Below, piece after piece: positions 4,083-28,313 of a stretch of DNA of 64,000 bases (the stretch's first letter is position 1; each line of letters opens with the position of its first letter). The position numbers and the translations under genes are program-made. Below the pieces are notes generated by a model that saw nothing but the letters and a program-made list of their open reading frames with translations, had not been told where the DNA came from and did no database searches. Source of the stretch: a bacterium (GTDB lineage Bacteria; Patescibacteriota; Minisyncoccia; Phycocordibacterales; JAKAEA01). The stretch covers positions 311,712 through 375,711 of the forward strand of contig JAKAEA010000001.1 in the NCBI GenBank assembly GCA_021818465.1, in the 5' to 3' direction.

Positions 4083-6827
4083 ATGCCACCACTTAATCAC
4101 TTTACTACTAAAGCAAAAGAAGCAATTCGTAAGGCTCATGAGCTGGCTATTGAACGTGGTCAAAATCACGTTAATCCGCTCCACCTCCTTGCCGCTCTCA
4201 TCCTGCAAGAGGAAAGCATGGTCGGTGCTATTTTGGATAAACTAGAGATTGATACCATTTTATTGACTGATTCGTTGATGGAATCCATTGAAGGGCCAGA
4301 AGGCGGTTCTACGCTCAATCCTTCTTATCAAATTTATCTCACCCCCGATCTTGCGCAGGTCATTTCTGATTCCGAGCGTGTAGCCAAGTCACTCAATGAT
4401 GAATTTATTTCTACCGAACATATGTTCGTTGCTATTCTTGACGTGGCTGGTTCGGCGCGTGATTTATTGGCGCGTTTTCGTATTACTCGTGAAGCAGTGG
4501 TGAAGGTGCTGGAAGAATTGCGCGCTAATAAAGTGACTGATGTGCATGCTCCTAAAAAACCGAAGGCACTCGCACGCTATACGCGTTCGCTTACCAAGAT
4601 GGCCGCTGAAAACAAATTGGACCCGGTTATTGGTCGTGACAATGAAATCACGCGCATTATTCAAATTCTCTCACGCCGCACCAAAAATAATCCGATTTTA
4701 ATTGGTGAGGCGGGCGTTGGCAAAACAGCTATTGTCGAGGGCTTAGCGTTGCGTATGGCGCAAGGTGATGTACCAGAATCGCTCAAAGATAAAGAGTTGG
4801 TATCGCTTGATCTTGGCGCATTGGTAGCAGGTACAAAATATCGCGGAGAATTCGAAGAGCGTCTAAAAAATATTTTGAAAGAAATTGAGCGTTCAGCGGG
4901 AAAAGTTATTCTTTTTATTGATGAAATTCACACCATCGTTGGCGCTGGCGCTGCGGAAGGTTCGCTAGACGCATCTAATATGTTAAAACCAGCGTTGGCA
5001 CGCGGTGAGCTTCGTGCTATTGGTGCTACCACGCTTCGGGAATACCAAAAACACATTGAAAAAGATCCAGCCCTGACTCGTCGTTTTCAGCCAGTGCATG
5101 TTAATGAACCGTCGGTAGAAGATACCATTGCTATTTTGCGTGGGCTAAAAGAAAAATATGAGTTGTATCACGGTGTGCGCATCACGGACGACGCTATTAT
5201 TGCCGCTGTTAATCTGTCGTCGCGCTATATCACCGATCGCTACTTGCCCGACAAGGCGGTGGATCTCATTGATGAGTCGGCTTCGTTCTTAAAAATTACT
5301 TTAGAAGATATGCCGCCAGTTCTCCAAGAAACGCATGGAAAAATTATGCGCCTGGAAATTGAACGAGAGGCACTGAAAAAAGAAACTACCAAGGTTGCCA
5401 AAGAGCGCGTTAAAATCATTGATCAAGAAATTGCTAACCTGAAAGAGCAAACGGCAGAAATAGAGCTTAAGTGGAAAAATGAAAAGGAAACGCTCGGTGA
5501 AATCAAGCAAATTAAAAAAGATCTTGAAACGTCGCGCTTGGAAGCAGAAAATGCCGAAGCGCACGCTGATCTCGGCAAGGCCGCAGAAATTCGCTATGGC
5601 AAAATTCCTCAGCTTGAAAAAAATATGGATACTAAATTGAAACGCTTGAAGAAATTGCAAAGCTCGCGACGAATTTTGAAAGAAGAAATTACCCAAGAAG
5701 ATGTTGCTGATGTGGTGTCACGATGGACGGGTATTCCCGTGGCGCGCATGCTTGAAGGTGAAGCAGAAAAACTCGGTCGCATGGAAGAAGTATTGACGCA
5801 GCGCATTGTTGGTCAAGACGATGCGGTGCGGAAGATTGCTGATACGGTGAAGCGTTCACGTGCCGGTATTAGCGACCCTAATCGTCCCATCGGCTCATTT
5901 ATTTTTTTGGGTCCGACGGGTGTTGGTAAAACCGAGCTCACTAAAGCGCTCGCCGAATTTATGTTTGATGATGAGAAGGCGCTTGTGCGTGTGGACATGT
6001 CCGAATTTATGGAAAAACATTCAGTTTCCAAATTAATTGGCGCGCCAGCCGGCTATGTTGGGTACGAAGAGGGTGGTAATTTTACCGAGCTCATTCGCCA
6101 TCGTCCGTATTCCGTCATCTTGCTTGATGAAATTGAAAAAGCACATCCGGAAGTCTTTAATGTGCTCCTGCAAGTGTTGGATAACGGTCAATTAACCGAT
6201 GCAAAAGGCCGCAAGGTTAATTTTCGCAACACTATCATTATTATGACCTCGAACCTTGGTGCCAACTACATTGATAAGATGCAGAAATTTGGCTTCGGTA
6301 CGCTCGATCGAGAAACCGCTGGTTCTAAACAAGATTCTCCGGTGGTTGATCGTGCCGACTATGAACAAATTAAAGATCGAGTACTTGAATCGTTGCGCGA
6401 ATTTTTCCGTCCAGAATTTCTTAATCGTATCGATGACATTATTATCTTTGATATTTTGAATCGCGAAGCAATTCGTAAAATCGTGGAAATTCAGGTCGGT
6501 TTGGTTAAAGAGCGTTTGGCAACGAAAGAAATTACGCTAGATATTTCTGCAGATGTGTATGACTACCTTGCCCGTCAAGGCTACAATCCACAATACGGTG
6601 CGCGCCCACTTAAGCGACTCATTCAAAATAAAATTTTAACACCAGTAGCATCCCTCATGATATCGAAAGGTATTATGCGCGGTGGCGTTGTAAAAGTCAG
6701 CCTGAAAGATGCGAACAGTGCCGAGTTTGTCTTTGATGTTAAAAAAGGTAAGAAGGGGAGTTTGCTACGAGAAGACCTCCTGGATACTACACTAACTGCT
6801 TCTGCTCCACAGAGTGTAGGGAAATAG
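4083..6827 (+). CDS. clpB: ATP-dependent chaperone ClpB (two AAA+ modules with long coiled-coil middle domain)
   Basis: Clp N-domain repeats, NBD1 Walker [16 protein letters not shown], long coiled-coil insert, NBD2 Walker [16 protein letters not shown], 914 aa. Confidence 0.9.
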
Positions 6828-12581: not shown

Positions 12582-13334
12582 GTGTTTGTGATAAGTTTGT
12601 TAGTTAATCTGTTTCTAAATATGTACTGTAAACATTGTGGTGAAAAAATGACTAACGGTGCCCAATTTTGCGGTAAATGTGGCGTGCTGGTAGATAATAA
12701 AGGTCCACAAAATCAGGAGATGTATAAAGAAAGTTCTTTAGACGTTGAGTTAAAAAGAGGCGTATATAAACTTGAAAATGGAGATATGGCGGGAGCAGAA
12801 AAAATCTTTGAAGATTTAGCTTTCAAATATAATGCGCCGATGGCGTGGGTATATATCGGAGGAATTAAATTAGGGCAATTAGATTCTGGAGAAAGCACGG
12901 TGCAACAGGCGCTTAACTGTTTTGTAAAAGCTAGTCAAATAAATCCTACGTCAAAAGAGATGTATCAGAGTATTTTTTGCGATATAGCTACAAAACAAAT
13001 AGAGAAATTTTATAACCAGTATTTTTTAACAAAAAAACAAGCTGGCAAAGCCAGCAGGAGAGGTTGGGGAAGTTTAGCTCTTGGAGGATTGTCGCTTCTT
13101 TTCGCGAATCAAAGCCAGACACTGGGTAATAAGATGCTCGGAGGGGCGGGCGGTATTTATGGCGCTTATCGTGCAAACAAAAATTTCTCAAATAGTAGTA
13201 ATGCAAAACAATTATTGTCATTCTATATCACGACCATAAAACAACTTGTCGCAGGCGTAGGATCTTTTTGTTCTGATAGTAAAAATATTTATCAGGATTT
13301 TTTGAATAAAACAAACCGACTTAAATTAGCATAG
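12582..13334 (+). CDS. Zinc-ribbon domain protein A (N-terminal CxxC-x10-CxxC)
   Basis: GTG start with AAGAGG RBS (or ATG at 12621); MYCKHCGEKMTNGAQFCGKCG zinc ribbon; Gly-rich hydrophobic segment near C-terminus. Confidence 0.55.
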   Translation: MFVISLLVNLFLNMYCKHCGEKMTNGAQFCGKCGVLVDNKGPQNQEMYKESSLDVELKRGVYKLENGDMAGAEKIFEDLAFKYNAPMAWVYIGGIKLGQLDSGESTVQQALNCFVKASQINPTSKEMYQSIFCDIATKQIEKFYNQYFLTKKQAGKASRRGWGSLALGGLSLLFANQSQTLGNKMLGGAGGIYGAYRANKNFSNSSNAKQLLSFYITTIKQLVAGVGSFCSDSKNIYQDFLNKTNRLKLA

Positions 13335-13355: not shown

Positions 13356-14450
13356 ATGTACTGTTCAAAATGTGGAAATAAAGCAGAACATGGCGACCGC
13401 TTTTGTATTAAATGTGGAACAAAACTTAACTTCACAGTAGAGGAAAATGTAGAAACGCTTAGTCAGGAAAAAATAGAAGAAATTATCAAAGATCTCAACG
13501 ATGGAACAGTAGCCGCATTCACAGCCGCCGAACTCACAGTTGCCGAAAAAGAGGCGGTAGTCAGAATAGCAATCAAACAACAAGACCCTCGACTGGCTAT
13601 AAGTATTCTTAATTATCTGAATAGTGTGAAAGAACACAAACTAACCTCGCAAGAAAAAATGGAATTAAAATGGACTATCCTAAAAAGCAAGGATACGGAA
13701 ATTGCGTGTTCTGCCTTGCTTAATCTTGGAAATGTTTTTACAGACCCAGAACGAAAAACCCTACGCGATATTGCATCAAAAACTACAAACGCTTATTGGG
13801 CGTATGGTATCTATCGAGAAGAATGTCTTGAGCTGGTACACGAACCAGAGAACAGAAAAGCGCTAAGAAAAACGGTTGTAGAAACGAACGATCCCAAATA
13901 CGCTTTTGAATTTCTTAGTGCTCAAGACGAAAACCTGGAATCATACGATAAGGATCTGAAGTCCTTGGAGTTTAGTAAAGAAGAATTAGAACATTTTAAA
14001 CAAATAATACTTTCTAGCCGAGATGTTGATATTGCATACAAGCTCTTGTTTTCCAAAGAACAAGTAGAAAAGGCAAAAAAAGATCCAGATATGTTTGATT
14101 ACACCTTTCCTTCAGTGATTGATTTAACACCTAACGAACAAGAAATCCTCAAGAAAATAATTCTTGAGAGTAAGAACGCTTATTCTGCCTACGACATACT
14201 TGGGGGGCTTCGTGGAAATCCGGCCGTTATTTTCACGGATATAGAACGAGCGCTTTTAAGAGAAATTTTAGTTCAAACAACGAATCCAACTGTTGCCCGT
14301 GGTGTCTTGTCTAATCCTATTCTGTCCCAGAGTCTCAGTCAGGAGGAGCGCGCTCATCTTGTTGGCGCTCAAAATGAAGACAGTAAGAAAAGAGAAGAAA
14401 TAAAGAAAAAATGGAGAGAATCAAATAAGACCCCGAGGGAAATTGAATGA
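13356..14450 (+). CDS. Zinc-ribbon domain protein B with internal helical repeats
   Basis: MYCSKCGNKAEHGDRFCIKCG zinc ribbon, paralogous N-terminus to previous gene; repeated ..NAY(W/S)AY(G/D)I.. helical motifs. Confidence 0.55.
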   Translation: MYCSKCGNKAEHGDRFCIKCGTKLNFTVEENVETLSQEKIEEIIKDLNDGTVAAFTAAELTVAEKEAVVRIAIKQQDPRLAISILNYLNSVKEHKLTSQEKMELKWTILKSKDTEIACSALLNLGNVFTDPERKTLRDIASKTTNAYWAYGIYREECLELVHEPENRKALRKTVVETNDPKYAFEFLSAQDENLESYDKDLKSLEFSKEELEHFKQIILSSRDVDIAYKLLFSKEQVEKAKKDPDMFDYTFPSVIDLTPNEQEILKKIILESKNAYSAYDILGGLRGNPAVIFTDIERALLREILVQTTNPTVARGVLSNPILSQSLSQEERAHLVGAQNEDSKKREEIKKKWRESNKTPREIE

Positions 14451-15621: not shown

Positions 15622-15969
15622 ATGACTAAAAAAATCGTATTTCTAGGTGTTTTTTTGGTGTTACTGATGAGTGTTGTGGCCGTACCAGCGGGTCAGGCTT
15701 TTGCTTGGGGATCATATGGTTATTATGGCGGCTACCAATATTATAATAGTTACCAGCCTTACTACAGCTATTACTATCAACCGTCGTATTATTACTATAC
15801 ACCGCCCGTATATACGCCACCGCCGACGTATACCTATTATTGCTCGTGGGGATGTGCGTCACACAACTATAACTACAATAACGACTATAATTATAATTAC
15901 AACTACAATCATAACTACAACCACAACTATAATCACAACTATAATTACAACAACTACCGTCAGTGGTAG
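15622..15969 (+). CDS. Secreted Tyr/Asn-rich low-complexity protein (signal peptide + YY/NYNYN repeats)
   Basis: N-terminal MTKKIVFLGVFLVLLMSVVAVPAGQAFA signal peptide; Tyr/Pro-rich then (NYNYNH)n; paralogous N-terminus to 22139..23149. Confidence 0.6.
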   Translation: MTKKIVFLGVFLVLLMSVVAVPAGQAFAWGSYGYYGGYQYYNSYQPYYSYYYQPSYYYYTPPVYTPPPTYTYYCSWGCASHNYNYNNDYNYNYNYNHNYNHNYNHNYNYNNYRQW

Positions 15970-15991: not shown

Positions 15992-16714
15992 TTATTTTTT
16001 TGAAACGTTTTTTATCGTAGCAAAACTTTTTTCAAGTGCTGTTTGCATGCTGCTTAAATCGGAAAAGGCAGGATACACGCTGCCATTCACAATAAAAAAT
16101 GGTGGTGTAGTGGTGGCAGGAATTGGCGGTAGAGCGATAAGACTTTCTACTGCTGCCCAGTCACTGTCGTAATTAAATGAATAAATATGTGCCTGAGGAT
16201 ACTTTTGTGTTACTGCTTGTAAAATATATCCTTGGGTCACACACTGCGCGCAGGTGCCTGTTGGGTAAAAATAGAGGATAAATGGACGCGATGTGGTAAC
16301 TGGAAGAGCGCAGCGGTGTATAATAGTTTGTTCAAGATTATAGTCTTTAATTTCCATGAGCGAATAGTAGCGTTCCAAACGGAAGAGATCGGGATTATCT
16401 GGTCCGAGCTGACTTTGCATAAAAGAAAGTTTATTTTGTAAATCAGTGAGACTCGTGGCAATGGCTTTCGCAGTGGTTGTAGCTGAAGCGCCAGTGCTCG
16501 TACTGGAAGCGCAGAGAGATGTGTTGATGTTAGCAGTAAGGATGTCGGTTCGCGCTTGGAGTGATAAAATTTGAGTAGCGATGGCATCTTCTTCATTTTT
16601 AATAATGGCAGTTTTTTGATTATTGATATAGACACTAACCATCCACGCACCGATAAAGATGACGGCCGTAATAACAAGAACTGAAATATATAGCGTAACG
16701 GGAATTCGTTTCAT
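15992..16714 (-). CDS. Membrane-anchored thioredoxin-like protein (CxxC)
   Basis: N-terminal TM helix, coiled-coil segment, C-terminal Trx-like region with YPTGTCAQC motif. Confidence 0.4.
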   Translation of the reverse strand: MKRIPVTLYISVLVITAVIFIGAWMVSVYINNQKTAIIKNEEDAIATQILSLQARTDILTANINTSLCASSTSTGASATTTAKAIATSLTDLQNKLSFMQSQLGPDNPDLFRLERYYSLMEIKDYNLEQTIIHRCALPVTTSRPFILYFYPTGTCAQCVTQGYILQAVTQKYPQAHIYSFNYDSDWAAVESLIALPPIPATTTPPFFIVNGSVYPAFSDLSSMQTALEKSFATIKNVSKK

Positions 16715-18069
16715 GAGCGAGCGGTGGGCGTTCGGGTACGGGCGGTGACGTGAACAGCTCGTTCACGTTGCCAGCTTGGCGTGCGTGAACGGAGCGCATT
16801 ATAGACTGACACGAGTAGCCAAAGCGGCGCGATAAGAGGAAAAATTAAAAAATACAACAGAACAGAAACGGAAAAACGCGAACGCTCACGGGCGAGAGCG
16901 TGCGCCTCGACAACCATGCCAATCATAAGAATATAAATTAAAAGCGTGAGTACAAGGTATGCTGGGGTGCTAATAAAAAACCAATTCCAGTGCCATGGTG
17001 AGAAGGAAAAACCGATAGTGTGGAAGCGTAGATACCAGTGCCAAAGTGTCACACCGAAACGATATATAAGAAACGCTATGGAAATCACGGCACCAAAAAT
17101 AAGAGCAAGGCCAAGTGGTGCGGTAAAGAGAGCCATATTGCCATAGCGTGGTCGCAATAGAATCCAATGATAGTCGCGCAGATTTAAAAGAAAGCCAGAT
17201 GTCCAGCGAACGCGTTGTGCGTAGAGTTTTTTGAAAGTAGCGGGACCAGTTGTGTACACGGTTGCCTCGTGAGCGTTTTCAATATGTAAATTTTTTGATT
17301 GAATACGAAAAGCCATTTCCATATCTTCGGTATTGTGGGCGTGTCGAAAAAAACCAACGTGGCTAAATAAATCTCGCCGAAAAAGAGAGAATGGTCCAGG
17401 AGTGACATAGATAGCACTAATAAGTGCTTGGACCTTTCTAATAAAAATACCAATAAGGTATTCAACACGTTGCAGAGCCTGGGCGAGTGTTTGTGGTCGA
17501 TAAATTTTCATCGCGGGAGTGACGGCGACAGTCATATGCTGGCGAGTGCCGATCGGTGTTTTCCAATCCTCAAAATAAGGAATCATTTTTTTCAATGCAT
17601 TTGCTTCAACAAACGAGTCGGCGTCTAAACAGCCGACAATATCGGTGGTAGCGTGGGCAATAGCGAAATTGAGCGCGGTATATTTGCCACCATTTTCTTT
17701 TCGGTGGGCGGTGACGATAGTGGGATACTGTTTTTGGTAACGTTGAATAACGTTCCAGGTATTGTCTTGCGAACCATCATCAACGGCACTGATATATAAT
17801 TTACCGACGGGATATTCAAGGGCAAGTAATGATTCAATTGTTTTTCCAACAGTTTTTTCTTCGTTATAACACGGAACAATAATGGTAACAGATGGGTATT
17901 CGTGGGTGTGTTCAAGGCTATCGTGAATTTTGGTGCGTGCGCGAATTTTTCGACGATTAATAAAATATGTACCCAAAATAAAGGTTTGAAAATAGATGCC
18001 TACAAAGAGGAAAATGTAGAGAACAACGGTTTGAATAGTGTTCATAAGAAGAGAAATGTAGTATAGCAA
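16711..18069 (-). CDS. Family 2 glycosyltransferase, processive membrane type (CesA/NodC-like)
   Basis: IIVPCYNEE, VDDGSQD, DAD, QRVRWTSG (QxxRW) motifs and multiple C-terminal TM helices. Confidence 0.8.
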   Translation of the reverse strand: MLYYISLLMNTIQTVVLYIFLFVGIYFQTFILGTYFINRRKIRARTKIHDSLEHTHEYPSVTIIVPCYNEEKTVGKTIESLLALEYPVGKLYISAVDDGSQDNTWNVIQRYQKQYPTIVTAHRKENGGKYTALNFAIAHATTDIVGCLDADSFVEANALKKMIPYFEDWKTPIGTRQHMTVAVTPAMKIYRPQTLAQALQRVEYLIGIFIRKVQALISAIYVTPGPFSLFRRDLFSHVGFFRHAHNTEDMEMAFRIQSKNLHIENAHEATVYTTGPATFKKLYAQRVRWTSGFLLNLRDYHWILLRPRYGNMALFTAPLGLALIFGAVISIAFLIYRFGVTLWHWYLRFHTIGFSFSPWHWNWFFISTPAYLVLTLLIYILMIGMVVEAHALARERSRFSVSVLLYFLIFPLIAPLWLLVSVYNALRSRTPSWQRERAVHVTARTRTPTARS

Positions 18070-19333: not shown

Positions 19334-21409
19334 ATGGCTGAAACAAAGGGTAAAAATACGTCTCACTATAGCGCCGCAGATATCCAGGTGTTAGAAGGTT
19401 TGGAGCCGGTGCGTAAACGTCCCGGTATGTACATTGGTACGACTGGTCCAGATGGTTTTCATCACTTGGTTACAGAAGTTTTTGACAACTCACGCGATGA
19501 AGCGATGGGTGGTTTTGCTACTGATATTGAAATTACGCTTTTGCCAGCGGTGGATGGCGATTTAGAACGAGTGCGTGTGGTTGATAATGGTCGTGGTATT
19601 CCCGTAGATGTACACAAACAAACAAAAGTGTCAGCGTTGGAAACTATTATGACCACCTTGCATGCTGGTGGAAAATTTGGCGGCGAGGGATATAAGGTTT
19701 CAGGCGGCTTACACGGCGTTGGTGCTTCGGTGGTGAATGCGCTCTCCAGTTGGTGTCAGGTGGAGGTGCATCGTGACGGTGGTAGATATGTTCAAGAATA
19801 CCAACGTGGCAAGAAAAAAGCCGCGGTTAAAAAATTGGGCGCATCACAACGTACCGGTACCATCGTCACTTTTGCTCCCGATGAAGAAATTTTTGGTAAG
19901 CAAACATTCGATTTCAATCGTTTGGTAAATCACATGCGCCAACAAGCGTATCTTGTTAAGGGGTTGCGTATTAGCGTTATTGATGCTCGCGCAGCGAAAA
20001 AATGCGATCTCGATACGGTATTTTATTTTCGTGAATGCGGTGTTGATGCGCCATCGCACTCGTTTTATTTTGAAGGCGGCCTGCGGTCGTTGGTTAAGTT
20101 TCAAAACCAAGTGCTTAAGCCGGTGCACAAGAATATTTTTTATGTAGAGAAAAAGACTAACGAATACGAATCAGCCGAAATTGCTTTACAGTATGTGGAT
20201 GATATTGCTTCACGAGTGTTACCATTCGCAAACAATATTTATAACAGCGAGGGCGGTACGCATATCACTGGTTTTAAAACGGCACTGACACGTACGCTCA
20301 ATAATTATGGACGCAAAAACAATCTCATTAAAGAATCGGAAGATAATTTTACTGGCGAAGACGTACTTGAAGGTTTGACCGCGGTGGTTTCCGTGAAGAT
20401 TCGCGAAATTCAATTTGAAGGTCAAACGAAAGCGAAATTAGGTACCGTGGAAGCGCGCGGTATTGTGGAAAGTGTTTTCGGTGAGGCCTTCGAGGCATTT
20501 TTGGAAGAAAATCCTGATGATGCGCGCGCTATTGTTGGTAAGGTGGTGCTTGCGCTTAAAGCACGTAAAGCTGCTAAAGCTGCCAAAGATTCCGTATTGC
20601 GCAAGGGTGCCTTAGAAGGATTTGCATTGCCTGGTAAGTTGGCTGATTGTCAAAGCAAAGACGCCAGTGAGTCCGAACTCTTTATCGTAGAGGGTGACTC
20701 TGCCGGTGGTACCGCCAAACAAGGCCGTGATCGCCGTACGCAGGCAGTGTTGCCGTTACGGGGCAAAATCCTCAATGTTGAGCGTGCTCGCTTGGATAGA
20801 ATGCTTGATTCGGCAGAAATCAAAGCACTTATTATTGCTCTTGGTACAGCGATTGGTGACACGTTTGATCTTGCTCGGTTGCGTTATCATAAAGTTATTA
20901 TTGCTACGGATGCTGACGTTGATGGTGCGCACATCCGTACGCTTTTGCTGACACTCTTCTTTCGTCATTTCCGCTCACTTGTTGATAATGGTCATATTTA
21001 CATTGCGCAACCACCGCTTTTCAAAATCAAAAAAGGCAAGGAAATTTTTTATGCGTATTCCGATGAAGAACGCAACAAAATTGTTGGCACCGCAGACGTT
21101 AGTGATATTGAAGAACTAGAATCCGATGAAGCTGCTGCAGCCGATACGCCTGCTGTAGAAGAAAAAGAAGAAACAGTAACAAAAAAATCTAACAAAATAT
21201 CTATTCAGCGCTATAAAGGTTTGGGTGAAATGAATGCTGAAGAACTTAAAGAGACAACAATGGATATTGCCAACCGTATTCTCAAAAAGGTAACGGTAGA
21301 CGACGCACAAGATGCCGATAAAGTTTTTGACGTCCTTATGGGCACCGATGTGCCAGCGCGTAAATCTTTCATTCAATCTAATGCCCAAAAAGCAACACTG
21401 GATATTTAA
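19334..21409 (+). CDS. gyrB: DNA gyrase subunit B
   Basis: GHKL ATPase N-terminus (LEGLEPVRKRPGMYIGTTG, DNGRGIP), TOPRIM EGDSAGG, C-terminal QRYKGLGEMN motif. Confidence 0.85.
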   Translation: MAETKGKNTSHYSAADIQVLEGLEPVRKRPGMYIGTTGPDGFHHLVTEVFDNSRDEAMGGFATDIEITLLPAVDGDLERVRVVDNGRGIPVDVHKQTKVSALETIMTTLHAGGKFGGEGYKVSGGLHGVGASVVNALSSWCQVEVHRDGGRYVQEYQRGKKKAAVKKLGASQRTGTIVTFAPDEEIFGKQTFDFNRLVNHMRQQAYLVKGLRISVIDARAAKKCDLDTVFYFRECGVDAPSHSFYFEGGLRSLVKFQNQVLKPVHKNIFYVEKKTNEYESAEIALQYVDDIASRVLPFANNIYNSEGGTHITGFKTALTRTLNNYGRKNNLIKESEDNFTGEDVLEGLTAVVSVKIREIQFEGQTKAKLGTVEARGIVESVFGEAFEAFLEENPDDARAIVGKVVLALKARKAAKAAKDSVLRKGALEGFALPGKLADCQSKDASESELFIVEGDSAGGTAKQGRDRRTQAVLPLRGKILNVERARLDRMLDSAEIKALIIALGTAIGDTFDLARLRYHKVIIATDADVDGAHIRTLLLTLFFRHFRSLVDNGHIYIAQPPLFKIKKGKEIFYAYSDEERNKIVGTADVSDIEELESDEAAAADTPAVEEKEETVTKKSNKISIQRYKGLGEMNAEELKETTMDIANRILKKVTVDDAQDADKVFDVLMGTDVPARKSFIQSNAQKATLDI

Positions 21410-22046
21410 GAGCCTTCAATTTCTTGGCATCGTTTTGGCGGTATTCGTCCTAACCTTCATCACTCTGTATCTTATTGGTGCAGTTCCTAATTCACTTCAT
21501 TTTTTTGTAGAGACACCTATTACAAATGGTTCTGATACTACCTCATCGGCATCAGGACACCTATCGCCGGGCGCAGTGGGTGTAGAGAATGGATTTTTCG
21601 TTGGACCAGATTTACCAGAAAAGATTGTTATTCCATCTATTGGCGTGGATAGTGTGATTCTTAATCCACAAACAACAGACGTGGTCTCTCTTGATACTGA
21701 TCTTCTTAAGGGGGCAATACGCTATCCAACATCCGGTGCACTTGGAGAGGGAACGGTATTTCTCTTTGGTCATAACACTGGTTTGCCAGCTCTTAACCCG
21801 GCGTACAAAACATTTAATGGTTTGCGCACTATTAAAACTGGTGCACAGATAGAAGTTGATTCAACAACGCGACGATATTTTTACACCGTTACGTCGCTTT
21901 CGTTAGTGAATGGTAACACCGCGTATGTTACGATTTCGGCGCACAACAATGAATTAATTATTTCTACATGCAATGTATTTGGTGCCAAACAACAACGTTA
22001 CGTGGTACACGCCCAATTTAGTAGCTCTAAGCCGTTGGTAGGCTAG
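21381..22046 (+). CDS. Sortase (transpeptidase) family protein
   Basis: N-terminal TM anchor, catalytic His (VFLFGHNTG), TLxTC-like Cys (ELIISTCN), conserved Arg; start overlaps gyrB 3' end by ~29 nt (alternative later start possible). Confidence 0.7.
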   Translation: MPKKQHWIFKSLQFLGIVLAVFVLTFITLYLIGAVPNSLHFFVETPITNGSDTTSSASGHLSPGAVGVENGFFVGPDLPEKIVIPSIGVDSVILNPQTTDVVSLDTDLLKGAIRYPTSGALGEGTVFLFGHNTGLPALNPAYKTFNGLRTIKTGAQIEVDSTTRRYFYTVTSLSLVNGNTAYVTISAHNNELIISTCNVFGAKQQRYVVHAQFSSSKPLVG

Positions 22047-22138
22047 AAAGAGAGGCCATTGACAATTATATTAGATATGGTAAAATGTTCACGTTCGTGA
22101 AAGGTTTCAATTTTCTTATAACTAATTAAAGAACTACC

Positions 22139-23149
22139 ATGACTAAAAAAATCATATTTATGGCTGTAGTTTTCAGTCTTGTGGGAGGCGGTAGTTTTGC
22201 TGTTGCTTCCCATCAGGCGTCTGCTGATTGGTATGGTAGTGGTTACGGTGGTGGTTACTATAATAATTGTGGTTGTGATAATGTGCCGCCACCTCCTCCT
22301 GTTATATATACACCGCCAGCAATTTACACTCCGCCGCCAACCTACACGCCTGCACCTGCGCCAACACCGGTTGTGCCTCCTCCTGTTATATATACACCGC
22401 CAGCAATTTACACTCCGCCGCCAACCTACACGCCTGCACCTGCACCCGTGCCCATTATAGTTTCTCCTGTTGTGTATACACCGCCAGCAATTTACACTCC
22501 GCCACCTATTCAACAGCCGATTATTCAGACAGCTATTCAGACAGCACCGGCATTACAGGTAACGTGTCAAGCTAATCCTGTGCATGCGACCGTTGGTTCA
22601 ACAATTACATGGACAGCGTACATTTCTGGTGGACCGGGTTATTACGGTGGATATGGTGCCTACAACAATGCCTACTATAATAATTACAACACCAACTATT
22701 ATAATGGCCTCTCAATTGCCTGGACAGGTACGGATGGTTTAGCGGCAAATTCGAGCGCAGTTGTTTCTAAGACCTACATTACTCCTGGTGAAAAGGTTGC
22801 GACAGTGACTGTGCAAGCATATGGGCAAAGTGTAACGACTAGCTGCGCCAGTTTTATTTCAGCATCTGCGCCAGTGTATGTGCCACCGCCCATATCAGGA
22901 ACCACGCATCGTGTGTATTTGAATCAAGTACCATATACCGGTGCCGGTAGTGCCACTAAAATTATTCTTTTTGGAGTATTGGTACTTGGTTGGAGCGTAC
23001 TCGTTGCTTGGATGCTTATGAAGCGTCGAGCGGCTCGGTTAGGTGGTGCTACAGCAGTTGCGGTTGCGCCCACTGAAAATCCTATGCCCGTATTTACGAC
23101 ACGTGCCTTCCTAACAAATCACGTCAATCAATTGCGCCAAGCGTTATAA
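22139..23149 (+). CDS. Secreted Tyr/Pro-repeat protein with C-terminal membrane anchor (candidate sortase substrate)
   Basis: Signal peptide MTKKIIFMAVVFSLVGGGSFAVA; 28-aa repeat (PPPVIYTPPAIYTPPPTYTPAPAP) from 84-bp tandem DNA repeat 22295-22462 (+partial); C-terminal PYTGAG + hydrophobic helix + KRR. Confidence 0.65.
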   Translation: MTKKIIFMAVVFSLVGGGSFAVASHQASADWYGSGYGGGYYNNCGCDNVPPPPPVIYTPPAIYTPPPTYTPAPAPTPVVPPPVIYTPPAIYTPPPTYTPAPAPVPIIVSPVVYTPPAIYTPPPIQQPIIQTAIQTAPALQVTCQANPVHATVGSTITWTAYISGGPGYYGGYGAYNNAYYNNYNTNYYNGLSIAWTGTDGLAANSSAVVSKTYITPGEKVATVTVQAYGQSVTTSCASFISASAPVYVPPPISGTTHRVYLNQVPYTGAGSATKIILFGVLVLGWSVLVAWMLMKRRAARLGGATAVAVAPTENPMPVFTTRAFLTNHVNQLRQAL

Positions 23150-23176
23150 AAAGTAAAAAAAGGTCACAATAAAATG

Positions 23177-23200
23177 AGCGCCCGAAAGGCGCTTATTTTA
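23177..23200. terminator. Bidirectional rho-independent terminator
   Basis: AGCGCC-cgaaa-GGCGCT hairpin flanked by A-run upstream and TTATTTTA downstream, between convergent genes. Confidence 0.6.
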
Positions 23201-24958
23201 TATTTTATTTTTAATTTCATCGGAGAGTTGTCCAACTATTTTTTCAAGCGGTACACTGCCGATCTGGCCTCTGTCGCGGCTTTCTAACGTAGCAGTTGCT
23301 GTGGCACATTCTTTGTCGCCGATAACAAGCCAGTAGGGAATTTTTTCTAGTTTTGTGGTGCGGATTTTTTTACCGAGTGACTCATCGGAAGCGTCAAGCT
23401 CGGCGCGAATACCTGCCGCAACCAGTTTCGCGGTCGCTTTTGTAGCAACGGTGTGGTGAGCTTCACTAATGGGAATAACGCGCGCTTGCACTGGCGAAAG
23501 CCAGAGAGGGAAAGCGCCGGCAGTGTGTTCAAGTACTGTTGCCATAAAACGTTCGATGGAACCCATAATGGCGCAGTGAATCATGACGACGTCATCTTTC
23601 TTGCCCTCTTCATTCACGTAGGTGAGGTTGAAATTTTTTGGCATATTGAAATCGAGCTGGATAGTTGCTACTTGGAGTGTTCGACCAAGCGAATCAGTAG
23701 CGATAAAATCAATTTTAGGACCGTACATTGCGGCTTCACCTACGCCATCGATGAAATCGCTACGGCCACGTTTTTTGATGAGTGCAGAAAGCTGTTGCTC
23801 GGCATCGTGCCAAATGTCTGGTGTGCCCAAGTATTTTTCAAAATGTTCCGGATCGTGTCGCGATAGGCGAATGCGAAGATTCTTGAAACCAAGAGTACTA
23901 TAAAATGTATCAATAATATCCCAAATAGCGAACACTTCTTGTTCGATTTGATTTTTTCGACAAAACACATGCGCATCATCTTGCGTAATAGAGAGAACGC
24001 GTGAGAGGCCGGAAAGTTCACCCGACTGCTCATCGCGATACACCATGGTGGTTTCGCAGTAGCGCTGCGGCATGTCGCGATAACTGCGTGGTGCTGCGGC
24101 GAAAATTTGCGTATGGTGCGGACAATTCATGGGTTTTAAGGCGTAGAGTTTTTTCTCGCGGGTGGTTATTTTGAAAAGCTCTTCGCTGAATTTTTTCCAG
24201 TGACCGGACGTTTCGTAGAGGTCTTTTTTGGTAATGTGGGGGATGGTTACTTTGCTATAGCCACGAGCTTTGCGAAGTTCCCACACATAGTCGTTTAATA
24301 GTTCACGGATGAGCGTTCCTTTAGGCGTCCACAGCGGTAATCCTGGGCCAACAAGCGGTGAGAATACAAAAAGTCCAAGTTCCTTACCGAGTTTTTTATG
24401 GTCACGTTTCTCAGCCTCGCTGCGTTCATGTATGTATGCATCCAACGCTTGTTTGTTTGCAAACGCTAAGCCATAGATACGGGTGAGCATGGGTTTAGTT
24501 GCATCGCCGCGCCAGTAGGCACCGGCCACGCGATCGAGTTTGAATGCATCGGCAGCAATATCCTGTGCTGGATTAGTAGCATGTCCACCCCGGCAAAGAT
24601 CAGTAAACTCTCCAAAGGTATACAGAGTGATATGCTCGCCTGCCGTGGCGATTTCATGAATGAGCTCAAGTTTAAAAGGGTTATCTGCATACAGTTTTTT
24701 TGCTTCGGCTTCACTCACTTCTTTATTCGTACTTTTTTCCCATGTTGGCAGAATTTGGCGCATCTTTTTTTCTATCGCCACCAAGTCTTTGTCTGAAATA
24801 GGTGTACTAAATTGGAAATCATAATAAAAACCAGTATCAATGGCAGGACCGATTGTCGGTTTGGCGTCAGGGTAAAGTTGGAGAACAGCTGCTGCAAGAA
24901 GGTGCGCTAATGAGTGACGCTGGTATGCAAGTTTTTTTGACGGTTCGAGGTCTTTCAT
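23198..24958 (-). CDS. thrS: Threonine--tRNA ligase (lacking N-terminal TGS domain)
   Basis: N2/editing-domain start (HSLAHLLAAAV..YPDAKP..GPAIDTGFYYDF), class II catalytic core, IHCAIMGSIERFMA, C-terminal anticodon-binding domain. Confidence 0.85.
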   Translation of the reverse strand: MKDLEPSKKLAYQRHSLAHLLAAAVLQLYPDAKPTIGPAIDTGFYYDFQFSTPISDKDLVAIEKKMRQILPTWEKSTNKEVSEAEAKKLYADNPFKLELIHEIATAGEHITLYTFGEFTDLCRGGHATNPAQDIAADAFKLDRVAGAYWRGDATKPMLTRIYGLAFANKQALDAYIHERSEAEKRDHKKLGKELGLFVFSPLVGPGLPLWTPKGTLIRELLNDYVWELRKARGYSKVTIPHITKKDLYETSGHWKKFSEELFKITTREKKLYALKPMNCPHHTQIFAAAPRSYRDMPQRYCETTMVYRDEQSGELSGLSRVLSITQDDAHVFCRKNQIEQEVFAIWDIIDTFYSTLGFKNLRIRLSRHDPEHFEKYLGTPDIWHDAEQQLSALIKKRGRSDFIDGVGEAAMYGPKIDFIATDSLGRTLQVATIQLDFNMPKNFNLTYVNEEGKKDDVVMIHCAIMGSIERFMATVLEHTAGAFPLWLSPVQARVIPISEAHHTVATKATAKLVAAGIRAELDASDESLGKKIRTTKLEKIPYWLVIGDKECATATATLESRDRGQIGSVPLEKIVGQLSDEIKNKI

Positions 24959-25031
24959 ATGCGGTGGTGAGAATTGGTCTACATCATAACAGCTTTACTC
25001 GCTATTTGAAAGTTACTAATCTATGAGTTAA

Positions 25032-28000
25032 TTATAATACTTTTGCTTTTTCAACAATAATGCTTGGCGCGTCATTGCGCTTAGAGAGACGACCTTTCAT
25101 GGCGACACACACATCGGGCGCAAAAAGCTCCGGGTATTGTTTGAAAGTTTTAGGGAATACCACGCCTTCCATTGATCCGGTGTAATCGGCAATTTTTATG
25201 AACAACATCTTCTCATTATTTTTTGTTATAAATTGTTTAACTTCTTCTAGGAGACCATAGACAACAATTGTGGCGCCCTCAGGCATTTCTTTGAGGCGTG
25301 TGATGGTAGCGGCGCTACCGTCTTTTTGTTTGGCCTCGAGTTTTTCACGATAGGCATCGAGAGGGTGGCCGGAAATATAGAGACCGAGCAGTTCTTTTTC
25401 CCAGGCCAAGCGCTCGTTGGGGCTGGCGATGGCGGCTGGTTTGAGACGTAACGTTGGCACGTTCGCTGTATCATCGAGCAGTGTAAAGAGTGAATCTTCA
25501 CCATTGCTTGCCTGGGTCGCTTCTTTGTTGTAAGCGAGTAAATCGTCTATGGCGCCAAGTAGTTGGCCGCGTTCGCATTTTTGCTTTTGATCAAGTGGCA
25601 GCTCGTCAAATGCGCCAACTCGAATGAGTGCTTCTAATGATTTGCGATTGAGATTGCGGTTGCGGACACGAGTGAGAAAGTCGGCGAGCGAATGAAATGG
25701 ACCTTTTGTTTTTCGTTCAGCAATGATGGCGTCGGCGATACCTTCACCAACATTTTTAATAGTGTAGAGGCCGAAGCGAATGGCGTCGAGAGTGGCAGAC
25801 GTCTCGGACGTGCTTGGTGTTCCTTTAATAACCGTGAAGCCGCCAAAGCTTTCATTAATATCTGGTGGCAAAATTGGAATCTTCATGCGTCGACATTCCG
25901 CAATCGTTTCGGCAATAGTTTCAATGTTGCCGCTCTCGGCAGTGAGTACGGCACACATGTAGACGGCGGGAAAGTTTGCTTTCATGTAGGCAGTTTGGTA
26001 GGCAACGCGACCGTAGCTCGCAGCGTGAGCTTTATTGAAACCGTATGCAGCAAAGGGTTCAATGAGTTTCCAAAGCATTTCAGCTTTTTGCTGACTCATG
26101 CCGTTGCTGAGTAAACCGTGTATGAGTTTATCCTTTTCAGCTTGCATAACTTCCGGAATTTTTTTACCCATCGCTTTGCGAAATTTATCGGCTTCCAGCC
26201 ACGAGTACCCGGCGAGTTTGATAGCGGAGAGAAGCACATCGTCTTGATAAATGAGTAAACCATAAGAAAAATCCAAATATTCTTTCATGCGTGGATCCAA
26301 ATAGGTGACACGTGCCGGATTATGTTTGCGTTCAATGTACTGCGGAATAACTTCCATCGGGCCTGGACGGTAGAGCGCGACCATAGCATTAATATCGTGA
26401 ATAGTGCTTGGTTGTAGTTCTTTAAGAAATCGGGTCATGCCTGAGCCGTTGAGTTGAAACAAGCCTATGGTCTCACCCCGAGCTAGCATTGTGAACGTTT
26501 TAGCATCATCTAATGGAATGTGTTCAATATCCACATCAATATGTTCTATTTTTTGTACTAACTTTACAGCGTCAGCCAAAATAGCTAAGTTACGGATACC
26601 TAAGAAATCAAATTTGAGTAAACCTGCATCTTCTACCGACCACATATCGTATTGGGTGATAATTTTGCCACCGCTGGTGTCGTTGGTACTTTTAGGATCT
26701 AGTTGCAGTGGCACAAAATCGGTGATAGTTGTGGGGGCGATAACAACACCAGCGGCGTGCACCGAAATGTGTCGGGCGCGGCCCTCAATTTTTTTTGCGG
26801 TATCAATAATTTCGCGTACTTCCGCTTCGGCATCATATATTTTTTTAAGCTCAGGTTCCATTTCCAGGGCGCGCTCAATAGTCATAGGAAAACCTTGTGA
26901 GCCCATGGGGATGAGTTTTGCTACTCGGTCACCAGTAGTGTAGGGATAGCCGAGTGCGCGAGCGACGTCGCGTACAGCGCCACGTGCCATCATAGTGCCA
27001 AAGGTACCGATCTGGGCGACTTTGTCGTAGCCGTACTTTTTCTTGGCATACTCAATCATTTCGTCACGACGATTATCAGCATAATCCATATCAATATCAG
27101 GCGCGCTTGGTCGTTCTGGATTTAAAAAACGTTCAAAAGGCAGCTGGTATTCTAATGGATCAACATTCGTGATGCCGGCCAAGTAGGTGACGAGTGAACC
27201 ACCGACCGAGCCGCGGATGGTGGTGAGAATACCGTGTTCGTGAGCGTAGTGCAGTAAATCAGCAACCACAAGAAAGTATGGCGAGTAGCCTTTCGTTTTG
27301 ATGACAGATAGCTCGTATTCCATGCGCTCGCGCACTTTTTTGAGTTGTTCGGGATTAGTATATTTTTTATCAAAACCACGTTTTAAAAAACCCTGCTCTA
27401 CTGATTGCCGAAGCGCTTCATCGGCCGTGGTGCTGCCGGAAGGTAGCTCAAAATCAGGAAAAACCCATTTTCCGAGCGTCAGTTCCACAGTACACTGGTC
27501 GGCGATTTTAACCGTGTTTTCTAGAGCGTCAGGTGTATCTGTAAAAAGTTTTTCAGCCTGATCACTAGTAATAAAAGAAAAATTTTCCTCGGTGTCTTCA
27601 AAGCCACCACGTTCTAGAGCTTCGCCGTTTTGCTGAATAGATTGCAGCGTCTCGCGCGCCAATCGATCATCTTGTGAAAGGTAGTAGACATCATGAGCGG
27701 CAACAAGCGGTACCTGGTGTCGACGAGAAAATGCGACGAGTTTTTTCATGGTTTCTTCGTGGCCAGGAATTTCTGGATGGTGCGTTAGTTCAAGAAAAAA
27801 TGCACCTTCGCCGAAAAGTTTTTTGTAGTATGCAACAAGTTCAAGCACTTTTTCTTCGTCGTCGGCTTTGAGCGCTGCGATGATCTCGCTAGAAAAGGAC
27901 GGCGATATACAGATTAATCCCTCGGCATATTTTTCCAACAGCTCGCGGTCAACGCGCGGCTTATAATAGAAACCCTCTAGGTAGGAGTCGGTTACGAGTC

Positions 28001-28313
28001 GCAATAAATTTTTGTAGCCGATATTGTTTTTAGCAAGGAGTACCAGACGCGTGCGGCGATTATCCACGCCAGTTTGTTTGTCGTGGCGTGTGCGTGCGGC
28101 GAGGTAGCAATCAACGCCGATGATCGGTTTCAACTCATTTTTTTTACATTCCTTATAAAATTCAATGGCGCCGTAAAGGTTACCGTTATCGGTCAGGGCC
28201 ACGGCGTTCATACCGGCCGCTTTTGCTGCAGCAACCAGCTCGTCGATTTTCGGCAGGGCAGAGAGCAGGGAATAGTGTGAGTGCGTGTGCAGATGAACGA
28301 ATCGTGAAGACAT
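25032..28313 (-). CDS. dnaE: DNA polymerase III alpha subunit
   Basis: PHP domain FVHLHTHSHYSLL, Pol IIIa palm/fingers, OB fold; 1093 aa. Confidence 0.9.
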   Translation of the reverse strand: MSSRFVHLHTHSHYSLLSALPKIDELVAAAKAAGMNAVALTDNGNLYGAIEFYKECKKNELKPIIGVDCYLAARTRHDKQTGVDNRRTRLVLLAKNNIGYKNLLRLVTDSYLEGFYYKPRVDRELLEKYAEGLICISPSFSSEIIAALKADDEEKVLELVAYYKKLFGEGAFFLELTHHPEIPGHEETMKKLVAFSRRHQVPLVAAHDVYYLSQDDRLARETLQSIQQNGEALERGGFEDTEENFSFITSDQAEKLFTDTPDALENTVKIADQCTVELTLGKWVFPDFELPSGSTTADEALRQSVEQGFLKRGFDKKYTNPEQLKKVRERMEYELSVIKTKGYSPYFLVVADLLHYAHEHGILTTIRGSVGGSLVTYLAGITNVDPLEYQLPFERFLNPERPSAPDIDMDYADNRRDEMIEYAKKKYGYDKVAQIGTFGTMMARGAVRDVARALGYPYTTGDRVAKLIPMGSQGFPMTIERALEMEPELKKIYDAEAEVREIIDTAKKIEGRARHISVHAAGVVIAPTTITDFVPLQLDPKSTNDTSGGKIITQYDMWSVEDAGLLKFDFLGIRNLAILADAVKLVQKIEHIDVDIEHIPLDDAKTFTMLARGETIGLFQLNGSGMTRFLKELQPSTIHDINAMVALYRPGPMEVIPQYIERKHNPARVTYLDPRMKEYLDFSYGLLIYQDDVLLSAIKLAGYSWLEADKFRKAMGKKIPEVMQAEKDKLIHGLLSNGMSQQKAEMLWKLIEPFAAYGFNKAHAASYGRVAYQTAYMKANFPAVYMCAVLTAESGNIETIAETIAECRRMKIPILPPDINESFGGFTVIKGTPSTSETSATLDAIRFGLYTIKNVGEGIADAIIAERKTKGPFHSLADFLTRVRNRNLNRKSLEALIRVGAFDELPLDQKQKCERGQLLGAIDDLLAYNKEATQASNGEDSLFTLLDDTANVPTLRLKPAAIASPNERLAWEKELLGLYISGHPLDAYREKLEAKQKDGSAATITRLKEMPEGATIVVYGLLEEVKQFITKNNEKMLFIKIADYTGSMEGVVFPKTFKQYPELFAPDVCVAMKGRLSKRNDAPSIIVEKAKVL

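Follow-up and report, generated by a model that had tools for sequence, protein, structure and literature searches.

Class A sortases such as S. aureus SrtA, B. anthracis SrtA (2kw8) and L. monocytogenes SrtA (5hu4) have a β-barrel, a His/Cys/Arg triad and an N-terminal membrane anchor, and in their LPXTG substrates a signal peptide is combined with a P-x-T-G core, a hydrophobic helix and a patch of basic residues. In the canonical form, the protein terminates shortly after the helix, within a few residues. Dedicated pairs of sortase and target are also known, namely SrtB–IsdC of class B (NPQTN), class D (LPNTA) and the class GN 'marine sortase' (TIGR03784), whose only target is encoded next to it. 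Patescibacteria (candidate phyla radiation, CPR) are ultra-small bacteria, regarded as living in attachment to other microbes, and, to our knowledge, little has been established on how they build their surface. Here, we describe a sortase gene and the surface protein gene next to it in a 64,000-nucleotide stretch of DNA from a patescibacterial metagenome-assembled genome (GCA_021818465.1, contig JAKAEA010000001.1, positions 311,712–375,711; the whole stretch is referred to as the window). We consider it likely that the two form a dedicated sortase–substrate pair of Paceibacteria-type CPR that would anchor a variable adhesin to the cell wall.

The window pair resembles the class A/LPXTG systems in its β-barrel, triad and membrane anchor and in the layout of the substrate from signal peptide to basic residues, but its sortase shares 20–25% identity with class A enzymes, falls below every NCBIfam class cut-off and is paired with one adjacent substrate, whereas class A enzymes serve many scattered ones. 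The signals differ as well: P4 is Val or Ile here and Leu in LPXTG, P2 is Tyr or Ala, the motif reaches at least five residues further upstream (Leu at −4 in 144 of 144 sequences), the helix has conserved K, F and W-S residues, and 33 to 393 residues follow the motif, in contrast with about 30–35 in LPXTG proteins. As in the dedicated pairs, the sortase gene lies beside that of its own substrate, and the motif is a non-LPXTG variant. However, the window sortase is a member of none of them (marine_sortase 23 bits against a cut-off of 158, class D 29.9 bits against 140/165), its motif is different, and we know of no conserved cytoplasmic tail modules in the SrtB–IsdC, class D or class GN systems. 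The pair is one member of a large sortase/sorting-signal variant, apparently uncatalogued, of Paceibacteria-type CPR.

A survey of CPR genomes found the sortase family fam000526 in more than half of them (Meheust et al. 2019, PMC6744442), and the window sortase presumably belongs to this broad family; the available part of the account of fam000526 names no sorting motif, cognate substrate or tail. In S. gordonii, what cleavage of LPXTG signals leaves behind in the membrane is detected by the histidine kinase of the SGO_1180 two-component system, as described in PMC11326707. This is like the proposal made below in that a post-cleavage remnant can have a function. However, the S. gordonii remnant is reported to be a short LPXTG signal of the canonical kind, which is detected inside the membrane, whereas the predicted window remnant has a dedicated conserved cytoplasmic sequence.

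The sortase

21381..22046, + strand: sortase, 221 amino acids (aa); PF04203 over residues 82–212, E = 1.4e-15, 57.6 bits against a cut-off of 26.6
21771..21773, + strand: codon of the catalytic His131 in FLFGHNTG, aligned to the LAGHN His of B. anthracis SrtA (2kw8)
21795..21815, + strand: family-specific motif N139-P-A-Y-K-T-F145 between His and Cys, from an alignment of 16 homologs
21969..21971, + strand: codon of the catalytic Cys197 in IISTCN, the TLxTC equivalent, aligned to 2kw8
21996..21998, + strand: codon of the catalytic Arg206 in QQRYVV, aligned to 2kw8

An initial annotation, made from the letters alone, had read this gene as a sortase with His and TxxTC-type Cys motifs and had left the alignment of the catalytic residues to be checked. 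The PF04203 match bears out the assignment. In the alignment with B. anthracis SrtA, His131, Cys197 and Arg206 fall on the catalytic residues, and all three are invariant in the 16 homologs, as are N139, A141, Y142, K143, T144 and F145 of the family-specific motif. A longer open reading frame (ORF) starting at 21312 was rejected as the sortase gene, as its start lies inside gyrB and the homologs begin at MPKK.

The AlphaFold2 (AF2) model of the sortase, with a predicted local distance difference test (pLDDT) score of 75, shows a membrane helix at residues 5–31, a disordered linker at 40–74 and a β-barrel at ~77–218. When the model was searched with Foldseek, 131 PDB matches were found at E ≤ 1e-3, and the best 50 of the 131 were all sortases. 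The top matches were class A sortases, with a TM-score (TMt) of up to 0.81 and E about 1e-10 at 20–25% identity. By contrast, the class assignment by hidden Markov model (HMM) that the initial annotation had proposed yielded no class: none of the NCBIfam sortase class models came near its cut-off. The best was class D with the score given above, followed by TIGR01076 (28.3 bits against 39.35), marine_sortase GN, class C (22 against 160) and class E (21.8 against 160), and the enzyme was therefore not placed in any of the classes A–F. A by-eye check of the sequence found no DP[FWY] lid-like motif. The results showed that the protein encoded at 21381–22046 is a genuine sortase without an assigned class, whose predicted fold is closest to class A.

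The predicted substrate protein

22139..23149, + strand: predicted sortase substrate and surface protein, 336 aa (ORF; orthologs P0002–P0004)
22139..22225, + strand: signal peptide, residues 1–29, predicted cleavage after A-S-A (27–29); sequence reading, AF2 helix 3–19
22292..22543, + strand: Pro/Tyr-rich stalk of three 84-nt tandem units with 100%, 89% and 61% identity to the first unit
22553..22861, + strand: PKD-like β-sandwich, residues ~139–241, between the invariant Cys143 and Cys236 (AF2, Foldseek)
22631..22708, + strand: Tyr/Asn/Gly-rich loop insertion in the PKD-like domain, residues ~165–190, of varying length among orthologs
22913..22942, + strand: sorting motif V259-Y-L-N-Q-V-P-Y-T-G268, invariant in orthologs, with the predicted scissile bond T267–G268
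22961..23020, + strand: membrane helix I275–M294, preceded by K274 and containing the family-conserved F278 and W285-S286 (AF2 helix 272–303)
23021..23146, + strand: predicted cytoplasmic tail, residues 295–336, with KRR, an Ala/Pro-rich linker and the C-terminal helix F324-LTNHVNQLRQAL336 (profile alignment)

The signal peptide named in the initial annotation is present, and its cleavage site was predicted by the −3/−1 rule. It is followed by a Gly/Tyr-rich tip with a C-G-C motif and then by the Pro/Tyr-rich stalk, which is predicted to be disordered. Mean pLDDT of the AF2 model was 51.6, the strands of the β-sandwich reaching ~80 and the loop insertion staying below 50; because of the low mean value for the whole model, the fold search was limited to matches of the β-sandwich. 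Its best Foldseek matches were the PKD domains of 1l0q and ColG (2y72), with a TMt of 0.75 and E about 1e-4. The Pfam model PKD_4 (PF18911) matched the window protein below threshold (E = 0.037, 14.5 bits against a cut-off of 27), while homologs pass it. A PDB profile search with the substrate profile gave nothing at E ≤ 1. Across the family, the ectodomains contain PKD, SpaA_2 and Cna_B modules (Pfam), which are typical of surface proteins and adhesins.

Close to the C-terminus, the protein has the tripartite layout of a sorting signal with a non-LPXTG motif, as initially annotated: P265-Y-T-G268, the helix I275–M294 and K295-R-R297, a layout that holds family-wide. PYTGAG occupies residues 265–270, and the motif is followed by AGSATK274. 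Cleavage between T267 and G268 is predicted by analogy with LPXTG; the peptides that span the predicted site are VYLNQVPYTGAG and VYLNQVPYTGAGSATK. After K295-R296-R297, another 39 residues follow, ending in FLTNHVNQLRQAL.

Linkage between the sorting motif and the sortase

The conservation of PYTGAG in orthologs was a point on which the initial annotation had made its reading depend. We found VYL(N/S)(Q/T)VPYTGAG to be invariant in orthologs down to 34% identity, with a sortase directly upstream in each. The logo of the whole family is [VL]-[YF]-L-[SN]-[QD]-[VI]-P-[YA]-T-G, in which Leu −4 and Pro are invariant.

To collect sortase loci, we scanned species-representative genomes with the sortase alignment and the NPAYKTF motif as pattern, which gave 80 loci. 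All were assigned to Patescibacteria or left unclassified, with one exception: L052, on a 4.6-kb contig (JAUYMQ010000359.1), is labelled Deltaproteobacteria and is most likely a binning contaminant. Around these sortases, we searched for P-x-T-G followed by a membrane helix within 12 residues. On the strand of the sortase, such proteins were found downstream in 49 cases and upstream in none; on the opposite strand, there were none downstream and one upstream. In loci having at least 2.5 kb of downstream sequence, 47 of 53 contained a motif-plus-helix protein downstream on the same strand. Among the six misses, L008 has the motif but is truncated where the contig ends, L020 has the motif with a stop or frameshift, and L026 and L050 are uninformative, as their downstream candidate extends beyond the sequence of the locus; the other two are considered below. 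In L020 (4664–6426), the substrate ORF stops just past ...VYLSQVPYTGIEDNLHTY and the tail, which is like that of L028, is found in a separate ORF (6139–6426), so the split is probably a frameshift or an assembly error.

The reverse scan was performed on metagenomes with the motif back-translated to DNA and also gave 80 loci, 76 of which had a helix after the motif or were truncated. A sortase of this kind lay upstream on the same strand in 34 of the 42 informative loci, within 265 nt in 27 of them. Since the association holds in both search directions, the link between sortase and substrate is stronger than could be seen from the window alone.

A narrow signal profile, built from four signal-plus-tail sequences, was then run against 1.84 billion representatives. 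It matched at least 285 clusters (50% identity) at E ≤ 1e-3, and all of the 148 newly found proteins among the top 150 matches carry motif and helix. Sortase was directly upstream in three of four informative look-ups of proteins found by the signal alone; two of the loci looked up keep the gyrB...thrS-dnaE synteny and have substrates of 1066–1080 aa. For the window protein and ten family members, no Pfam or NCBIfam model covers the signal or the tails, the ectodomains alone being matched. No description of the signal was found in the literature on PYTG-type motifs with a sortase or on sortase in CPR, Parcubacteria or Patescibacteria, most subscription journals lying outside the coverage of the search.

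Two loci have unusual endings. In L145 (5962–7461) and L112, the full VYLSQVPYTG is followed by only ~20 weakly hydrophobic residues (FWDDLLKVFIFVKTPEFIMVR) and a stop, and the L145 substrate keeps its position beside thrS. These endings could represent a degenerate signal, a frameshift or a helix-less variant.

Membrane helix and cytoplasmic tail

Relative to the motif, the conserved helix positions are K+9, F+13, W+20 and S+21, although the set is biased, having been selected by a profile that contains the K, F and W-S residues. Two independently collected sets also contain W-S, one in 31 of its 52 sequences and the other in 49 of its 75. The number of residues after the motif was at minimum 33, at median 71.5 and at maximum 393. 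When the top 150 profile matches were sorted by tail length, a minority of 8 had tails of the canonical short kind with fewer than 45 residues, 75 had 45–95, 51 had 95–160 and 16 had more than 160. The positive residues that follow the helix place the tails in the cytoplasm as a predicted topology. Thus, while the initial annotation was right about the ~40 residues past the charged tail of the window protein, it had called them atypical, and this did not hold: a long conserved tail is the rule of the family and not an oddity of the window protein.

Several kinds of tail were distinguished. In tails of 45–95 residues, the family has a helix motif I-x-x-F-[KR]-x-x-N, and of 75 such tails, 58 had F[KR]..N among their final 25 residues, against 1.3 in shuffles. 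The window tail belongs to this class; its LRQAL ending is a divergent copy of FKxxN, the ortholog P0002 keeps LRQQN, and the signal profile aligns the window tail to FKxxN proteins through its end. Tails of 95–160 residues contain a conserved domain of ~70 aa: 31 of 51 match [LIVM][LIVMS]-S-[STAE]-[DEQ]-A, and the tails end in E-W-x-x-[IL]-G-E-x-D. The pattern of this domain is E-x-[YF]-A-R-x3-[VI]-[IL]-[LI]-S-x-D-A ... E-W-x-x-[IL]-G-E-x-D-[LI]-E-K-[YF]-[LI], and no Pfam or NCBIfam match to the domain was found. It is present in P0027, P0032, P0034, P0038, P0042, P0047, P0056 and P0061 and also in L007, L017, L025, L027, L028, L038 and L045.

Kaiserbacteria-type tails, as seen in the sortase-locus set, are longer still (243–298 residues) and consist of VEP(V/I)YE repeats and a strongly conserved, C-terminal helical domain of ~110 aa. 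These loci (L034, L051, L054–L056, L073, L078–L080 and L084) have, between the sortase and the PYTG substrate, a secreted protein of ~310–356 aa with a signal peptide, in which the P-x-T-G plus helix pattern was not matched.

Proposed mechanism and alternative explanations

On the preferred reading, that of a dedicated pair for wall anchoring, the sortase would be a type-II membrane protein with its catalytic domain facing outward, probably co-expressed with gyrB, while the substrate gene may be under its own promoter-like site. The substrate would be exported by Sec via its signal peptide and then held in the membrane by the C-terminal helix and KRR. At the outer face, the sortase would recognise the extended motif V-Y-L-N-Q-V-P-Y-T-G, and the helix residues K274, F278 and W285-S286 may join in the recognition. 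By analogy with LPXTG, Cys197 would cleave between Thr267 and Gly268, form a thioester at Thr267 and pass the ectodomain to a peptidoglycan precursor. The anchored product would have its PKD-like domain beside the wall and its Pro/Tyr stalk and Gly/Tyr tip pointing outward as a rapidly evolving, presumably adhesive surface. The remnant from G268 to L336, comprising the helix and the conserved cytoplasmic tail, would stay in the membrane. Conservation of the tail implies a further role: it may act before cleavage, in retention, targeting or docking, or the remnant may have a function of its own.

Several points weigh against wall anchoring. Cleavage and wall attachment, including the acceptor, are predictions made by analogy, and the anchor models PF00746 and TIGR01167 gave no match at E ≤ 1; the sole anchor-related match was EF0750_LPXTG (E = 0.096, 13.2 bits against a cut-off of 47). 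L062 and L066, the two loci left over from the forward scan, are clear misses, having a sortase without a motif-plus-helix neighbour. In the reverse scan, 7 of the 42 informative loci had no sortase in the available upstream sequence (at least 900 nt), and in one the sortase lay elsewhere in the locus. In addition, a scheme of 'cleave and discard' does not account for the length beyond the motif, which is ~71 residues at the median and reaches 393, and some of the tails contain folded-looking cytoplasmic domains.

The tails raise the possibility, which we regard as rather unlikely, that cleavage splits a bitopic protein into two products, one an ectodomain that is bound to the wall or released, the other a functional cytoplasmic remnant tethered to the membrane. 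Such a remnant would report on surface display, localise it or regulate it. The proposal shares ground with the preferred explanation and treats the tail as the key novelty. We know of no description of such a two-product use of sortase in Gram-positive bacteria. Conservation of the cytoplasmic parts goes well past the requirements of retention in the membrane, as the frequency of F[KR]..N (58 of 75 against 1.3 in shuffles), the 51 of the top 150 proteins with 95–160 post-motif residues (31 of them with a shared signature) and the highly conserved ~110-aa domain of the Kaiserbacteria-type tails indicate, and specific helix residues are conserved too. The kinase of S. gordonii that senses a cleaved LPXTG remnant, as described in PMC11326707, offers a precedent. 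On the other hand, the window tail has just 42 residues with a degenerate motif (LRQAL for FKxxN), no partner protein has been pinpointed, the tails belong to no Pfam or NCBIfam family, and a tail could do its work ahead of cleavage, for instance by helping in retention, in targeting or in docking to the sortase. In its fullest form, which we hold to be doubtful, this explanation describes a modular bitopic family in which the sortase site lies mid-protein, with a variable adhesin ectodomain, a motif of 10–12 residues, a sequence-specific helix and interchangeable conserved cytoplasmic modules, namely the FKxxN helix, the ~70-aa domain or the ~110-aa domain, and from which cleavage yields two functional products. 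If there are indeed two products, the remnant would couple adhesin display to an intracellular process such as localisation to the host-contact site, expression feedback or signalling.

The same long cytoplasmic domains are normal in bitopic receptors and unusual in sortase substrates, and cleavage is a prediction, so PYTG and helix might instead form an uncleaved membrane anchor or interaction motif of a permanently bitopic protein, the sortase serving other proteins or another role. We consider this very unlikely: the invariant P-x-T-G core lies 6–10 residues before a helix with K/R, which is the exact geometry of a sortase signal, the association with the sortase is strict and directional in both search directions, and these loci offer no other candidate substrate. 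Within the 64-kb window, the substrate protein alone has P-x-[TSA]-G with a credible membrane helix. Polymerisation of the pilus type, in which a class C-like sortase would join substrate copies head-to-tail into a fibre, could be supposed from the pilin-type SpaA_2 or Cna_B domains of some family members and from the clustering of sortase and substrate, as in pilus islands. It seems highly improbable, since the loci examined have a single substrate gene and a single sortase and no multi-pilin gene set, the sortase lacks the DP[FWY] lid-like motif, its nearest structures are of class A and not class C, and the NCBIfam class C score is 22 bits against a cut-off of 160. Moreover, a by-eye check of the window substrate found no YPKN-like pilin motif, and the one conserved Lys, K274, is on the leaving-group side of the scissile bond.

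If dedicated wall anchoring applies, the lineage would have its own sorting signal and enzyme, and the rule [VL][YF]L[SN]Q[VI]P[YA]TG plus helix would list covalently displayed surface proteins, which would be prime candidates for host attachment. A long motif, conserved helix residues and cytoplasmic modules exceed the textbook sorting signal and suggest extra steps of recognition or signalling; we regard the conserved cytoplasmic tails as the most intriguing point of the family. The length and orthogonality of its recognition sequence could also make such a sortase useful for protein ligation.

Gene order at the locus

19334..21409, + strand: gyrB (ORF and Pfam gene call; context)
22059..22086, + strand: sigma-70-like promoter candidate of the substrate gene, TTGACA, 16 nt, TG-TAAAAT, 11/12 matches (consensus match only)
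23169..23201, + strand: terminator-like hairpin shared by the substrate gene and the convergent thrS, between the two (consensus match only)

The order of genes in the window is pheS, gyrB, sortase and substrate, followed by thrS and dnaE on the opposite strand. The 3' end of gyrB overlaps the start of the sortase gene by 29 nt, and the overlap is equal in L002, a 68%-identical relative. This suggests that the two genes are co-transcribed or translationally coupled, so that the sortase would probably be co-expressed with gyrB. Three promoter-like sites were found against 4.7 expected in shuffles. A minus-strand ORF at 22043–22513 (156 aa, rich in Arg, Trp and Cys) was rejected as a gene, being a shadow ORF that the Pro/Tyr repeat casts on the opposite strand.

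GCA_027341405.1 encodes an identical copy of the substrate protein on a 540-kb contig. The block gyrB, sortase, substrate, thrS (−) and dnaE (−) at 19334–28313 is kept in the relatives L002, L086, L090 and L145. At the conserved gyrB...thrS-dnaE locus, the substrate ranges from 267 to 1080 aa and the ectodomains differ; the gyrB...thrS block behaves like a fixed site whose cargo can be exchanged. A cargo of such varying size that evolves by repeat turnover would be as expected of a surface protein under diversifying pressure.

Stalk repeats and a related secreted protein

15622..15969, + strand: secreted Tyr/Asn-rich protein of 115 aa with no sorting signal and no Pfam match, a probable paralog of the N-terminal 70 residues of the substrate

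The 84-bp repeat of the stalk had been described as perfect. This proved incorrect: the in-register copies lie at 22292–22375, 22376–22459 and 22460–22543, and the second is 89% identical to the first, with the first 68 nt identical. The third unit, which had been called degenerate, is indeed so at 61% identity to the first. Tandem Repeats Finder (TRF) reported a period of 84 and 2.5 copies with 88% matches over 22291–22503. Copies 1 and 2 encode an identical peptide of 24 residues, PPPVIYTPPAIYTPPPTYTPAPAP. An exact 68-nt repeat at fixed spacing cannot be due to chance.

The repeat unit differs from ortholog to ortholog: it measures 84 nt in the window protein, 18 nt in L005 (PPPTYT) and 15 nt in L006 (PPVYN x 7.6). 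Between two orthologs with 97.5% identity over the rest of their length, the differences are an indel of 25 residues in the PPPTYT repeats and a Pro-rich indel of 4 residues, which supports a probably fast turnover of stalk repeats between orthologs. The hypervariable repeat number predicted in the initial annotation is therefore upheld, indirectly, at the level of orthologs (indel of 25 residues, differing units), which was the scope of the comparison, and not for this population.

The N-terminus of the substrate had also been said to be shared with the protein encoded at 15622. In an uncorrected local alignment, the two are collinear over residues 1–70 of both, a stretch that comprises the signal peptide, a G/Y-rich stretch and YTPP.YTPPPTYT, and the score of 111 compares with 32.9 ± 5.5 in 500 shuffles (maximum 60). 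However, composition-corrected BLASTP of the substrate against the 15622 protein gave no significant alignment (E = 59). The two proteins are likely to be related, on the basis of low-complexity sequence.

The 15622 protein contains 27% Tyr and 15% Asn. Tandem arrays of 6, 12, 18 and 24 nt at 15863–15954 encode an (N-Y)n/NYNH tract at its C-terminus. It adjoins, on the minus strand, a gene at 15992–16714 for a protein of 240 aa, which may be a thiol-disulfide oxidoreductase; this protein has a membrane helix at its N-terminus, contains a C-A-Q-C motif (YPTGTCAQCVTQGY) and is matched by no Pfam model. The invariant Cys pairs of the sortase substrate would need such an enzyme, and the neighbouring secreted 15622 protein contains Cys as well. 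The gene for the C-A-Q-C protein overlaps a family-2 glycosyltransferase gene (16711–18069) by 4 nt. Further upstream on the plus strand, two adjacent genes (12582–13334 and 13356–14450) encode products that both begin with a zinc-ribbon (C-x2-C ... C-x2-C) and continue with unrelated long regions.

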